A stretch of 64,000 nucleotides of DNA. Origin: a virus. Taxonomy: Duplodnaviria; Caudoviricetes. Shown in pieces: positions 29,632 through 39,565 of the stretch. The position numbers and the translations under genes were made by a program. Below the pieces are notes generated by a model. That model was given only the letters and a program-made list of their open reading frames with translations, ran no database searches and had not been told where the DNA came from. How positions within the stretch are numbered: position 1 is the first letter of the stretch; every line of letters begins with the position of its first letter. Where the stretch lies: IMG/VR virus record IMGVR_UViG_3300050821_001373, positions 1,472 to 65,471 of that record. The stretch is one strand, 5' to 3'.

Positions 29632-30233
29632 GTCTTGCTCCTTGGCTTGGTCAGGGCGAGGATGGCGTCGGCAACTTCCAGCGCGTTGACCTGAGGCATC
29701 GGACAGTTGAGTACGTATATATTTTTGAGGATTGTCAGCGCGATCTCCTCCCGCGTCGGCTCTGGCGCTGCCTGCGGGGCGGTGAAAAGGGCATCAACGA
29801 TCATAGAGTTAACAGCGATGGAAGTGCGGTAGTGATAGTCCGCTTCATGATTTTTCAATTCCAAATACGCTGCCTGCAAAGCCTTTCGCAACTCGCCCTC
29901 GCCAGATGGGCGCAGCGTCGGCTCTGGCGGGGCGGCGGCGTAGAGCGGAATCGTGGTGGCGTATCCGGCGCAGGCAACGATGCTCCCGTGGCCTTCTGCG
30001 TGAAGCTGCAACGCCTTCAGCGTGATAGGAGAAACGTATCCGATCGGCGCCACCGGCTCCGCGCTGGCGGTGGAACGTAGCGCGGCAGCAGCCGCGTCCC
30101 AACCGGCATAGAAATTGGTGATGCTGTCAATCGGCTTAGGCCCATTGCCATAGATGCGCAGAGAATGCTTGATGTAAGCGTTTTCGCGCAGCTTTAGCCT
30201 CTCGTTCTCTGTCATGACCTCACCTCCATGCAA
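29628..30233 (-). CDS. hypothetical accessory protein (EPVA...PLYAA motif)
   Basis: Motif typical of Ea22/nin-region-like mosaic genes. Confidence 0.55.
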   Translation of the reverse strand: MHGGEVMTENERLKLRENAYIKHSLRIYGNGPKPIDSITNFYAGWDAAAAALRSTASAEPVAPIGYVSPITLKALQLHAEGHGSIVACAGYATTIPLYAAAPPEPTLRPSGEGELRKALQAAYLELKNHEADYHYRTSIAVNSMIVDALFTAPQAAPEPTREEIALTILKNIYVLNCPMPQVNALEVADAILALTKPRSKT

Positions 30234-35273: not shown

Positions 35274-35356
35274 TGTCCCGACCAGCCTGGCAGCGTCATC
35301 GGGGTAGCTTTAGTTCCGGACGGCCCCAGCTTAATGCTTGGGGCCGTTTCCGTTTC
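35274..35356 (+). ncRNA. candidate counter-transcribed antisense RNA (~80 nt)
   Basis: Bounded by the promoter above and the GC hairpin + T-rich tail; no ORF. Confidence 0.45.
35321..35356 (+). terminator. intrinsic terminator
   Basis: CGGCCCCA...TGGGGCCG stem followed by TTTCCGTTT. Confidence 0.55.
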
Positions 35357-36526: not shown

Positions 36527-37014
36527 TGCAGGCTCTGAATCGTCATTCGAATGCCTTCGATCGGTGCCCATCGCAACGTGATTTCCCTCACGAACCTCTG
36601 ATCGTCACCCTCAATGATCCGGTGAGAGACCAGCAAGTCAACGGCCGCCTTCTCCCGGTTCGCCACGTCCATCCGCCGCGCTGTCTTCGGCTCCCCCACC
36701 TCGATCAGAAGGGAGACCTTTCCGGGCACTCCGCGAGGCCGCTGGATGGCTAGCAGCGTGCCGGCCTCCCGTATCCAATCCTGATATTCCGGCGTCTTGA
36801 TGCGGCCTTTGCCGGCCTTACCGTTGAAGAACAAATTGTTCACAGAAGGTGGCGTAGGTAAATTGATAACCGTTGCAGCCGGTGCCACAAATGGCGGATC
36901 GCTTACGTTTGCGGTATTCGGTGCTCCCTCGATGCCAAGGCGCCTGAGGTGCGCGGATATTAACCCGGCCCTACCCATATTTCCCTCGTAGATCGTGCAT
37001 GGTGATCCGTTCAA
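36523..37014 (-). CDS. rusA: RusA-family Holliday junction resolvase
   Basis: PTPPSVNN, MDVANREKAAVDLL, IEGDD. Confidence 0.8.
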   Translation of the reverse strand: MNGSPCTIYEGNMGRAGLISAHLRRLGIEGAPNTANVSDPPFVAPAATVINLPTPPSVNNLFFNGKAGKGRIKTPEYQDWIREAGTLLAIQRPRGVPGKVSLLIEVGEPKTARRMDVANREKAAVDLLVSHRIIEGDDQRFVREITLRWAPIEGIRMTIQSLQ

Positions 37015-37318
37015 TCAGGTCCTTCGAGCGGCCCTTGCATAGTGCCGTCCAGTCTTCGGTGGTCGCCTCAAACAGCATGGTTTCGGGCCTTACCTCAATC
37101 TTCTTGAGCCCGGTGAGCTTTGCTACCCGGTCAACGTAGGATGGCAGGATGCCTGCCCTTTTTCCCCAATTAGCGAGGGTTTGCCGTGTGACACCGATTT
37201 CCGATGCGAACCATTGCATGGCGCCGAAATCGGTACCATGCTTTTCTTTGTAGACGGATTTTGCCCGCAATATGACGCGGTCATAGGCCTGCAGGGCAGG
37301 TGTTTTTGCATTTGCCAT
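36971..37318 (-). CDS. Cro/CI-type HTH transcriptional regulator
   Basis: FASEIGVTRQTLANW HTH; first gene of the leftward arm; start at ATG 37318. Confidence 0.7.
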   Translation of the reverse strand: MANAKTPALQAYDRVILRAKSVYKEKHGTDFGAMQWFASEIGVTRQTLANWGKRAGILPSYVDRVAKLTGLKKIEVRPETMLFEATTEDWTALCKGRSKDLIERITMHDLRGKYG

Positions 37319-37361
37319 GGGCAATCGAGTAACAGAATATTTTGGCAATTGCAAATTATTA

Positions 37362-37390
37362 TTGACACCGGACCGTTCACGAGATAAATT
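37362..37390 (+). promoter_or_regulatory. sigma70-like early promoter in divergent control region
   Basis: TTGACA-17 nt-TAAATT; AT-rich; flanked by GGCAAT/ATTGCC half-sites. Confidence 0.7.
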
Positions 37391-37426
37391 GCCGATTGTT
37401 GGATTTGATATTTCAGGAGAACGACC

Positions 37427-37765
37427 ATGACCCAGACCACCAACCAGATGATCGCCACCTTCGACCGCGTCATCCGCAACGGCCAATCCTGCGCCGACCA
37501 GCACCTGCGCTACCCCGCCAGCATCGCCCGCAACAAGGCGCTGATCGACAGCGTCGCCGGCATCTCCCCTGCTGAGACCAAGGGCTTCGAAGAGATCGAG
37601 AGCTTCGCGCCGTATCACGAGATGCCGGCGTTCTGCGTCGGCTTCAGTGATCGCTATCGCGATCGCGAGCATTCCGGCGCCGACTACACATTCAGCGGCG
37701 TCGATATGCAAGCCTACGACCGCGGTCTGATGGCCGCCTCGCTCTGCCTGCGCCTCGGGCTCTGA
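37427..37765 (+). CDS. hypothetical early protein
   Basis: AGGAG RBS; QAYDRG motif. Confidence 0.7.
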   Translation: MTQTTNQMIATFDRVIRNGQSCADQHLRYPASIARNKALIDSVAGISPAETKGFEEIESFAPYHEMPAFCVGFSDRYRDREHSGADYTFSGVDMQAYDRGLMAASLCLRLGL

Positions 37766-37786
37766 TCCAACTACACACTCTATCAC

Positions 37787-38006
37787 GCCGGGCGGTCGAA
37801 AGACCTACCCGGCTCGGAGACGTAGAGGGGCGTCGCCTCTCTACTGAGGTCATCCCAACTAATGGAGGCTCACATGAAGCTCGCGACCGCTCTGTAATCA
37901 TACCACGTCGGCGATCAAATCAGCGGCGTTTGTGGGTATCGCCTGAAAAACCCTCGCCCGGCTCCGAATGGATACCGGGCTTGAGGACGTAGAGGGATAG
38001 ACCCTC
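37787..38006 (+). ncRNA. tandem structured RNA motif (2 covarying copies)
   Basis: Stem with C/TA internal loop and tetraloop, 6 nt, ACGTAGAGGG, second hairpin; copies at 37787 and 37956. Confidence 0.55.
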
Positions 38007-38019
38007 GGGAGGAATTGAG

Positions 38020-38229
38020 ATGACGTATTATTCATATGGTTTCGTACTATCGAAGATCGAGTATATGCGTCGAACTGGATTGATCACCAAGAAAGACGGC
38101 GGATACGGCCGCAATGGTGGGGCTTGCCCGGATTGGCTGGTGACTGAGCAAAAGGAGGAAGCCAAGCGCCAAGCTAATCGCGTGGTTCGTCGCATGGTAA
38201 CGTCCAACATCCCGCATATTGCGGGCTGA
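38020..38229 (+). CDS. hypothetical protein
   Basis: GGAGG RBS. Confidence 0.55.
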   Translation: MTYYSYGFVLSKIEYMRRTGLITKKDGGYGRNGGACPDWLVTEQKEEAKRQANRVVRRMVTSNIPHIAG

Positions 38230-38296
38230 GCCATGGCCGGGTGACAAAAGCCCGGCCACCTCACGGTGTAGAGAGACAACTAATCGGGGGAATGCA

Positions 38297-38527
38297 ATGA
38301 CCTGCAGATGCTCCAAGACCAACGACATCTCCAGCCCGGTCGAGATTTTCGAAACGCTTGACCAGATGCTTCGGGACGACAACCGCCGCCCGGTCGCGGA
38401 GATGCTTCCGGTCGAGCAGCATGCGGCGATTGCGTTCGCCATGGGTGCGCTGATCGTCGCGTTCCCTGCGGCCCTTGCTCACAAGCGAGCTGCCGAGCTG
38501 GGCCTGATCCATGAGGATGTGGCGTGA
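38297..38527 (+). CDS. hypothetical protein
   Basis: GGGGG RBS; overlaps next start. Confidence 0.5.
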   Translation: MTCRCSKTNDISSPVEIFETLDQMLRDDNRRPVAEMLPVEQHAAIAFAMGALIVAFPAALAHKRAAELGLIHEDVA

Positions 38528-38913
38528 GACCCAGGCTCCACGATGACAAGTATCTTGCCTTCCTGCGCACCAAGCCGTGCTGCGTTTGCCAGAACGGGCG
38601 GGTGGAAGGCATCGAGGCTGCCCACATCAGGATCGGGTTCGGCGCGCTCGGCAAGAAGCCGGATGACCGATTTGCAACGCCGCTGTGCAGCTACCATCAC
38701 CGGCTGCAGCACAGCATGAACGAGGCGCGGTTCTGGCAGGATTACGGGCTGGATCCGTGCGAGATCGCAGATCGCCTTTACGCCGAATACGGCGGCACCG
38801 GCGGCAAGCCGCGCCAGAAGCGCAAGGCGGTGAAGCCGCGCAAGCCGAAGCATTTGAGGCAGAAGATCCGCAGCCGCGGATTTCCGAAGAAGGAGCAACT
38901 ATGCAGGCAGTGA
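38524..38913 (+). CDS. DUF968-like Zn-binding (HNH-related) protein
   Basis: YLAFLRTKPCCVC, AAHIR, KPDD...PLCSYHH. Confidence 0.7.
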   Translation: MRPRLHDDKYLAFLRTKPCCVCQNGRVEGIEAAHIRIGFGALGKKPDDRFATPLCSYHHRLQHSMNEARFWQDYGLDPCEIADRLYAEYGGTGGKPRQKRKAVKPRKPKHLRQKIRSRGFPKKEQLCRQ

Positions 38914-39113
38914 AGCGCAGCAGCAATATTTCCCACGTCGGCTATGAGGGGACGACGCTGACGATCCAATTTAAGAACGGATCGAAGTGGTCATATGCCG
39001 ACGTTCCGGAGCACATTCATCGGGACCTGATGGCCTCCGACTCGGTCGGCGGGTACTTCGGCTCGCACGTCAAGAACAAGTTCAAGGGGACGAAGCATGA
39101 GGAGGGAAGGTGA
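38901..39113 (+). CDS. KTSC domain protein
   Basis: SSNISHVGY...LTIQFKNG...Y.DVP...SVGGYF; AAGGAG RBS. Confidence 0.8.
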   Translation: MQAVKRSSNISHVGYEGTTLTIQFKNGSKWSYADVPEHIHRDLMASDSVGGYFGSHVKNKFKGTKHEEGR

Positions 39114-39565
39114 CCGCGAAAGACTGGCTTGATCATGTGGCTGCTGCATGGGATCGCGACGAATGCCTCGCGTTCCCCTACAGCATCGGAAGCCATGGGT
39201 ATGGCCAGTTTTCGGCTAAACGCCTTTCAAAGCAGCCTTTGTTGGCTCACCGCTATATTTGCAAAAAAGCGCATGGAAGCCCGCCAGAAGGTGAGTTCAT
39301 GGCTGCCGCGCATTCGTGCGGAAATAGGATTTGCGTCAATCCGCGACATCTCCGATGGGCCACTTACGCCGAAAACGAAGATGATAAGCGCGAACACGGC
39401 AGAATGCAGATAGGCGAGCGCCACGCCATGGCGAAGTTGTCGAGATCAGATGTGATCTCGATCAGAGGAACGACGGGCCTCAACAAGGATATTGCCACGC
39501 AATTCGGCGTGACGAAGTCAACGATCGGGGACATCAAAAGGAGACGATCATGGAAGCACATTTGA
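39110..39565 (+). CDS. HNH homing endonuclease
   Basis: AHR...AAHSCGNRICVNPRHLRWAT..EN plus C-terminal HTH. Confidence 0.85.
   Translation: MTAKDWLDHVAAAWDRDECLAFPYSIGSHGYGQFSAKRLSKQPLLAHRYICKKAHGSPPEGEFMAAAHSCGNRICVNPRHLRWATYAENEDDKREHGRMQIGERHAMAKLSRSDVISIRGTTGLNKDIATQFGVTKSTIGDIKRRRSWKHI

Follow-up and report, generated by a model that had tools for sequence, protein, structure and literature searches.

Three copies of a hairpin-leader module lie between the first small genes of the predicted rightward early operon of an uncultured phage, in the stretch of DNA analysed here (the window; 64,000 nucleotides, bases 1472-65471 of the 65,471-bp virus record IMGVR_UViG_3300050821_001373, which has direct terminal repeats and is rated 100% complete). 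That the repetition of this module is not due to chance was confirmed by shuffling and background counts, and two of its copies recur, with 68/69 bases preserved in their hairpins and leader, around the same gene of a second phage genome. From these sequence comparisons we tentatively read the modules, at a little less than an even chance, as intercistronic RNA punctuation (governing mRNA stability, processing or attenuation) joined to the translation leader of the next gene; what we infer is that the region is transcribed from this operon's predicted promoter, along with each step of the mechanism set out below.

Anatomy and folding of the three modules

All three copies are intercistronic, one after orf112, one before orf69 and one after orf69, and sit within a divergent early region ~390-870 nt downstream of a predicted promoter. 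Each lies between + strand open reading frames (ORFs) and downstream of this promoter, which agrees with the consensus at 10/12 positions. A preliminary description of this DNA had spoken of an early leader, a placement that has to be corrected, as the modules stand between cistrons after the first gene and not in a 5′ leader. Copies 1, 2 and 3 of the window are termed W1, W2 and W3, and the orthologues of copies 2 and 3 in the second genome (G001) are termed G2 and G3. The parts of the modules are:

37763-37786, + strand: post-stop linker TGATCCAACTACACACTCTATCAC, with two similar copies in G001 (24/27 and 21/24 identical)
37787-37813, + strand: hairpin A1, GCCGGG/CCCGGC stem, GGTC/GACC inner stem, GAAA loop
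37820-37844, + strand: box ACGTAGAGGG opening hairpin B1 (GUAGAGGGG/CCUCUCUAC, 9 bp including one G-U pair)
37856-37897, + strand: CAACTAATGGAGG leader with Shine-Dalgarno sequence, then a 7-codon ORF (ATG 37874, TAA 37895)
37956-37980, + strand: hairpin A2, GCCCGG/CCGGGC stem, TCC/GGA inner stem, GAAT (GAAU) loop
37987-38019, + strand: box, hairpin B2 (GAGGG/CCCUC, 37992-38006), Shine-Dalgarno sequence GGGAGG (38007-12) and spacer to the ATG
38234-38258, + strand: hairpin A3, 9 bp with a 7-nt loop, 5 nt past the orf69 stop
38266-38296, + strand: GTGTAGAGAG followed by the orf76 leader CAACTAATCGGGGG (start codon at 38297; GTAGAG at 38268)

Hairpin A1 is built of 6 bp, a C bulge and 4 bp, with a UA bulge on the other side (C/TA internal loop; -18.0 kcal/mol), and A2 of 6 bp, a C bulge and 3 bp, again with a UA bulge; A3 likewise reaches -18.0 kcal/mol, and the hairpin energies as a whole range from -13 to -18 kcal/mol. 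Exactly 6 nt past A1 and A2 comes ACGTAGAGGG (37820-29 and 37987-96), which has no further exact occurrence than these 2 in the whole 65.5-kb genome. Reading the sequence reproduced the coordinates, the letters, both hairpins and the 6-nt spacing that the preliminary description had reported, as well as its looser third copy, A3 at 38234-38258 with GTAGAG at 38268. The second hairpin that it had proposed behind the first two hairpins is present in copies 1 (B1, 37822-44, 9 bp) and 2 (B2, 37992-38006, 5 bp); copy 3 has no hairpin B. The ribosome-binding site said to follow each copy can be recognized in all cases as a Shine-Dalgarno sequence (GGAGG at 37864, GGGAGG at 38007, GGGGG at 38285).

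The modules also resemble each other beyond their hairpins. A repeat search returned a direct repeat of 24 nt (37806-29 versus 37973-96, 83% identity), and a second repeat, CAACTAAT(G/C)G(A/G)GG, occurs at 37856 and at 38277 (to 38289). The leader of W1 equals a W3-type leader (GTAGAG, CAACTAAT, Shine-Dalgarno sequence) carrying a 25-nt insertion that creates hairpin B1; because of this relationship and of the repeats between leaders, we regard the leaders of the modules as paralogous. A leader of the form GGGATAG(A/G)CCCTC-GGGAGG is common to W2 and G2, and the early operons of both phages use a small set of reusable intergenic joints. The linker TGATCCAACTACACACTCTATCAC is itself a junction word that starts at the stop codon (TGATCC.AC.ACA...) and is found behind three unrelated genes across the two phages; in G001 (locus L045, 2496-2520 and 2726-2752) similar words lead straight into the next Shine-Dalgarno sequence. 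The 7-codon ORF stands behind a good Shine-Dalgarno sequence, and its frame stays open past its TAA to a TGA within hairpin A2 (37874-37983); it is possibly what is left of a small gene, or else it encodes a leader peptide.

Compared with shuffled sequences, the hairpins are exceptionally stable, the proportion of shuffled cores folding as well being 0/1000 for A1, 4/1000 for A2 and 0/1000 for A3; the copy 1 region as a whole gave z = -4.0, with 0/200 shuffles as stable. In minimum free energy (MFE) folds every copy forms hairpin A, and copies 1 and 2 form hairpin B as well. Strand-specific z-scores were mixed: copies 1 and 3 fold better as the + strand, copy 2 as the - strand. The window holds 331 GC-rich 6-bp hairpin ends (both strands counted), and a hairpin of at least 6 bp followed 5-15 nt on by GTAGAG is found at 4 distinct loci versus 0.54 expected; three of them fall within this 490-nt stretch, and the fourth is at 29929.

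Support for the fold also came from an alignment of three sequences (W1, W2 and G2), in which 4 of the 9 pairs of helix A are changed on both sides while 100% of the cells remain paired, in line with the preliminary description, according to which the stems differ yet pairing is kept. Helix B has 4 invariant pairs out of 5, the remaining one being unpaired in W1. Sliding the partners as a control lowers pairing to 31-68%, and the observed values were attained in 18/500 column shuffles. The inner stems and loops differ among the three sequences (GGUC/GACC with GAAA in W1, UCC/GGA with GAAU in W2, GC/GC with UUCG in G2), and the G-U pair of hairpin B1 is possible on the + strand RNA only, being a mismatch on the other strand. 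These compensatory changes in three sequences are suggestive of selection on the pairing in hairpin A.

Conservation in a second phage and distribution

G001 (64,792 bp, with terminal repeats; locus L045) was reached via orf69 and is the only other record with modules, the orthologues of copies 2 and 3 being placed around its own orf69. Comparison of the two loci, from the flank upstream of A2 to the flank downstream of A3, gave:

20 nt upstream of A2: 7/20 identical
A2 arms: 13/13 bases identical
spacer after A2: 5/9 identical
leader from TAGAGGG to the ATG: 32/33 identical
orf69 coding DNA: 176/210 identical
A3 hairpin: 23/23 identical
14 nt after A3: 10/14 identical
next 26 nt downstream: 9/26 identical

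The 68/69 shared bases are thus those of the hairpin arms, A3 and the TAGAGGG-to-ATG leader, whereas orf69 shows 34 differences, 23 of them at third codon positions. Purifying selection is indicated by the conservation of the hairpins and leader, which exceeds that of the coding DNA between them. The tip of A2 is swapped in G001 for a GC/GC inner stem with a UUCG loop, so that a capped helix is retained. Of the decamer that the preliminary description had noted behind both hairpins, the TAGAGGG portion is kept in G001 and the ACGT portion is not.

The region homologous to G001 sets in at A2 (37975 in the BLAST block, with the 5′ arm likewise identical) and ends at 38271, 13 nt beyond A3; its flanks are unrelated. 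By this alignment the hairpins mark the inner edges of what would be an exchanged gene cassette. Elsewhere in the two early regions, homology between 37264-37456 and L045 1862-2055 covers the promoter region and the first 10 codons (MTQT.NQMIA) of the first rightward gene; the encoded proteins are unrelated after codon 10 (112 aa in the window, 78 aa in G001), which places a mosaic joint inside the gene. Just upstream of A2, G001 has a gene (L045 2768-2917) for a 49-aa, very Arg/Lys-rich protein, the slot of which holds only the 7-codon ORF in the window. Among the sequencing runs listed as containing this DNA there was no RNA run, and a single run, perhaps the source sample, contained all of it. 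A second, unrelated metagenome run (X2) has fragments only; one of these, a 246-nt contig, aligns at 37955-37993, that is over A2, with 5 differences and hints at a third carrier of the module.

Beyond G001, the searches returned little. Exact copies of the A3 hairpin among viral contigs were confined to G001, and across 5 related records the hairpin pattern matched within the early operon in the two G001 copies only. The module DNA had no blastn match in phages or plasmids, and neither orf69 nor the Cro/YdaS-like helix-turn-helix (HTH) protein of the leftward operon (Cro-like protein) had a tblastn match among cultured phages. An alignment of the Cro-like protein found 3 viral loci (1 of them new), one metagenome locus, which is the G001 contig, and no bacterial genome; an alignment of DUF968 found 16 viral loci, and DUF968 and the Cro-like protein together lead to phages with the same operon frame. 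No Rfam family matched at gathering score anywhere in the window, the presence of a put model in Rfam being unconfirmed, and at E<=10 the interval 37000-39000 gave two chance eukaryotic matches, neither of them on the modules; this Rfam check agrees with the preliminary description, which could match the motif to no known family. A self-cleaving ribozyme was considered and set aside, as there was no match to an Rfam ribozyme. The pattern GGCTNNNNGACGTAGAGGG matched 38 times in viral contigs, never with the hairpin context, and these matches were counted as chance. Five of the matches (L006, L011, L022, L037 and L041) fall within a ~100-nt stretch that is conserved among these five unrelated contigs and for which a structured RNA or the core of an intron is conceivable.

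A covariance model (R1) was built from W1, W2 and G2. The best matches to non-members had E = 0.13-0.3 and the other matches in the window E = 0.13-7.5; copy 3 was not recovered at E<=10, and the leftward operon, searched on both strands, gave no credible match. No further copies were found in either genome, so that the counts stand at 3 here and 2 in G001. A weak fourth model match at 37216-37267 (+ strand; 15.8 bits, E ~0.13) is antisense within the Cro-like gene, upstream of the rightward promoter. Its build is that of A1 and A2, with a bulged stem of 6 bp, an inner stem of 3 bp, a loop of 4 nt and a UA bulge, and it is followed by TTTTCTTT and GTAGA. On this strand there are also two terminator-like hairpins, at 37143 and 37287, each with a T-run; together with the match at 37216-37267 they may terminate an antisense RNA, or the arrangement may be due to chance.

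Proposed intercistronic punctuation and the alternatives

Each module consists of a stable GC-rich stem-loop close behind the upstream cistron, a short, unconserved single-stranded spacer and a conserved leader with which the next cistron starts, the leader being composed of UAGAG..., a small second hairpin in two of the copies, and then the Shine-Dalgarno sequence. According to the punctuation reading, which is the simplest, hairpin A would end or protect the upstream message, as a 3′ barrier to exonucleases and/or by partly stopping RNA polymerase; cutting would most likely take place in the spacer, and the leader with hairpin B would provide the protected 5′ end and the ribosome site of the next message. 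In this way the first small early genes could be expressed at individually set levels. The modules might double as joints for the exchange of gene cassettes between related phages, a role that their mutual resemblance suggests.

Several results weigh against this reading. (i) The hairpins have the GC-rich stem of an intrinsic terminator, and no T-run follows any of them (the tails are TCGGAGACGT, TTGAGGACGT and CCTCACGGTG); a terminator scan flagged no module, and a canonical intrinsic terminator is excluded on this ground. (ii) An outer 4-bp helix (P1), present in all five MFE folds, was rejected as evidence because chance accounts for it equally well: with shuffled flanks it arose in 875-1904/2000 trials (44-95%), and random genomic flanks provide at least 4 outer pairs in 1357-1483/2000 trials. 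(iii) The loop of A3 (7-9 nt, 100% conserved) and the near-invariant leader could equally reflect contact with a sequence-specific protein or the ribosome. (iv) Comparative support comes from one second genome and 3-5 sequences, and the modules are absent, by blastn (word size 7) and by covariance model R1, from 16 further loci of relatives (L042-44, L046, L048 and L058-69, L042 and L046 coming from one record). The corresponding slot of L042 is filled by tightly packed, unrelated small genes that have no hairpins. The loci of relatives that lack modules imply that these are dispensable for this phage type; the modules are a local feature of two phages, for which the comparative evidence is thin. 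A promoter cassette can also be excluded, no promoter-like site being found in any module.

A different use of the same parts, which we consider unlikely, is a translational switch or coupling device. The CU-rich 5′ flank of hairpin A (CUCUA or CCCUC) would contend with the 3′ arm of hairpin B for pairing with the GUAGAGGG box, or these elements would pair with the Shine-Dalgarno sequence further downstream, and the next ribosome site would be opened by a ribosome that completes the cistron before it. The upstream partners named in the preliminary description, CTCTA (37778) and CCCTC (37951), are indeed present; A1 and A2 each have a 5-mer complementary to GTAGAGGG among the 15 nt that precede them, and in G001 such a 5-mer recurs within 25 nt upstream despite unrelated flanks, against a background of 2.2% per 15-nt and 4.0% per 25-nt segment. 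Moreover, CUCUAU pairs with AUGGAG of the Shine-Dalgarno sequence in the MFE fold of copy 1, the junction in the W2/G2 consensus fold is closed by C(C/U)C:GGG of the Shine-Dalgarno sequence, and conservation of the leader (32/33) is also what a switch would entail. However, the complementarity was picked after viewing the data in a CUC/GAG-rich region that permits many pairings, the upstream stop of W2 is ~55 nt from the pairing partner, and copy 3 is without hairpin B. When a ribosome footprint was placed on the upstream stop, the modelled exposure of the Shine-Dalgarno sequence rose in G2 (from 0.09 to 0.74) and G3 (0.19 to 0.72), but not in W1 (0.14 to 0.18), W2 (0.62 to 0.55) or W3 (0.44 to 0.47, with a window a few bases off), and an increase in 2/5 modules leaves the coupling model inconsistent. 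That no RNA fold is involved, and that the modules act purely as DNA, either as sites for a phage DNA-binding protein or as recombination hot spots, is distinctly unlikely. Sequence and not pairing alone is conserved in the A3 loop and the leader, the modules coincide with the edges of a mosaic block, and DNA-binding proteins were favoured by the authors who described the inverted repeats of the extended start-associated sequences (ESAS) of Cluster K mycobacteriophages (PMC3203893). Yet 4/9 stem pairs have changed on both sides with pairing kept, the opposite of the pattern reported by the ESAS authors; the tip of A2 has been replaced by a different self-paired sequence with a UUCG tetraloop, the G-U pair of hairpin B1 is valid in + strand RNA only, and the spacing of the arms varies (10-13 nt).

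Antitermination by a cis-acting RNA, either put-like (RNA alone) or nut-like (a phage protein on the hairpin), with read-through in the early operon, would account for two strongly conserved sense-strand hairpins at a distance of a few hundred nt from an early promoter, comparable to putR at ~270 nt from its start site (PMC9378689), and an RNA-only device is conceivable given that no antiterminator family was detected among the 18 early-region proteins scanned (Pfam, PHROGs). We nevertheless hold it to be very improbable: put is ~70 nt long with two long adjoining stems, whereas stem B has 9 bp or 5 bp here, or is missing, and 8-9 unpaired nt lie between it and A; the three copies share a single operon, and the model recovered none from the leftward one; the elements are missing from close relatives that have the same operon frame; downstream terminators on which they could act were not identified; and Rfam gave no match. 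A nut site of the lambda type would in addition have a boxA element beside its hairpin and an arginine-rich, N-like antiterminator of the phage. Equally doubtful is that the modules are inert, whether as remnants of a recent local duplication or as small selfish palindromic repeats without phage function. While the confinement of the copies to 490 nt and the ability of relatives to manage without them are in keeping with inertness, and the stretch from copy 1 to copy 2, with its 7-codon ORF and ~55 nt of unassigned DNA, suggests decay, inert DNA would hardly retain 68/69 non-coding bases next to a gene that differs at 34/210, or acquire compensatory stem changes, and the absence of copies elsewhere in either genome and in the plasmid and phage collections argues against a spreading repeat. 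Finally, hairpin A, the UAGAGGG box and hairpin B might together form a previously undescribed, protein-independent cis RNA that reprograms polymerase in the manner of put or gates the next ribosome site by alternative pairing, and that moves between phages with the gene it controls; we give this bolder proposal a small chance.

The early region and known systems

The window has a GC content of ~0.59, and no tRNAs were found in it. Minus-strand genes for terminase, portal, head, tail and ejection proteins and endolysin (PHROGs) are located at its two ends; no phage RNA polymerase was recognized by PHROGs among 28 large ORFs scanned. Around the modules the early region comprises:

36971-37318, - strand: Cro/YdaS-like HTH (Cro-like) gene of the leftward operon
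37362-37390, + strand: predicted rightward early promoter (TTGACA, 17 nt, TAAATT), sigma-70-like, 10/12 consensus matches
37427-37765, + strand: orf112, first gene of the rightward operon, no family match; 6 relatives with 57-76% identity
38020-38229, + strand: orf69, flanked by A2 and A3, 87% protein identity to its G001 counterpart
38297-38527, + strand: orf76, from which onward the genes are tightly packed without hairpin modules

The promoter is directed away from the Cro-like gene, and within 36800-39200 the only promoter-like sites are at 37312 and 37362. Rightward, the gene order is orf112, orf69, orf76, DUF968, KTSC, HNH, an exonuclease-like gene and RecT, and the other leftward genes encode RusA, a methyltransferase, a DnaA_C-HTH protein and a helicase. 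Members of the orf112 family (P0001-P0007) share a conserved C-terminal half, while their N-terminal half comes in two alternative forms; DNA encoding the relatives was not located in the metagenome, viral or genome contig collections. Pfam, PHROGs and Atlas provided no lead towards RNA binding or antitermination for the proteins flanking the modules. A strong 10-bp hairpin at 35320-35347, between the DnaA_C-HTH and helicase genes of the leftward operon, is unrelated in sequence to the modules.

In logic, the closest known system is the promoter-early stem-loop (PeSL) cassette of T4-type phages, in which a stop codon, stem-loop, Shine-Dalgarno sequence and start codon succeed one another at indel boundaries (PMC2839356; PMC4122927) and in which the stem-loop lowered reporter expression like a strong terminator (PMC2839356). 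Akin to PeSLs, the modules are repeated intergenic cassettes with the same order of elements, associated with small early ORFs of unknown function and with the boundaries of gene replacement between related phages. PeSLs, however, contain a strong sigma-70 promoter and number ~50 per genome, spread over hyperplastic regions (PMC2839356; PMC4122927), whereas the modules lack a promoter and occur as 3 copies in one operon (2 in G001), in a phage of 65 kb and ~59% GC that is not T4-like.

The start-associated sequence (SAS) of Cluster K mycobacteriophages is a 13-bp sequence, GGGATAGGAGCCC (<=2 deviations), that contains the Shine-Dalgarno sequence, lies 3-7 bp before the start and occurs 11-19 times per genome, and the arms of the ESAS measure 17 bp and show no compensatory changes (PMC3203893). 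Both systems place a conserved asymmetric sequence before the starts of non-structural genes from different families, sometimes preceded by an inverted repeat at a variable distance. The consensus GGGATAGGAGCCC resembles GGGATAGACCC in the window (37994-38004) and GGGATAGGCCC in G001, possibly by coincidence; GGGATAG occurs at 3 places in the window, one of them intergenic. This 11-nt look-alike is found in copy 2 only, 15 nt before the ATG and apart from a separate Shine-Dalgarno sequence, and the arms of the modules, of 6-9 bp, do show compensatory changes. The modules are set outside the SAS/ESAS group by where they lie, by how many there are, by the length of their arms and by these changes.

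The preliminary description had drawn its analogy from HK022 put, which is a V-shaped RNA of ~70 nt with 21 Watson-Crick and 5 non-canonical pairs, present once per early promoter as putL and putR (PMC9378689). It acts in cis to suppress termination, by way of the zinc-binding domain in the beta' subunit of RNA polymerase. The likeness consists in a sense-strand two-hairpin RNA behind an early promoter with no dedicated protein evident; the differences are that hairpin A has 9-10 pairs here and hairpin B 9 (copy 1), 5 (copy 2 and G001) or none (copy 3). Membership is rejected on both architecture and one-per-promoter placement, and the analogy did not survive comparison of stem lengths, junction and copy placement. 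What endures of the overall interpretation is a structured, conserved element on the sense strand of a predicted early operon.

Intercistronic stem-loops set segmental mRNA stability or constitute RNase III sites, as in T7 early mRNAs and the Rhodobacter puf operon, and RNase III sites have an interrupted helix of ~20 bp. The modules share with these systems a hairpin with a small internal loop that separates successive cistrons of a single early message and stands ahead of the ribosome site that follows, but their helix is 9-10 bp, or 13-14 bp if the outer helix, itself at chance level, is included. In light of these comparisons, we place the modules among phage intergenic hairpin-leader cassettes, of which they look like a local variant outside any named family.

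An action on polymerase or on translation initiation, if true, would matter far more, and the present evidence does not favour it. If the punctuation reading is true, the modules would be a compact, promoter-less counterpart of the T4 PeSL in an unrelated lineage of uncultured soil phages, and would suggest hairpin-plus-leader joints as a general phage means to set and swap small early genes. The segment of hairpin, leader, orf69 and hairpin offers a test case for conserved non-coding joints that travel with a gene.

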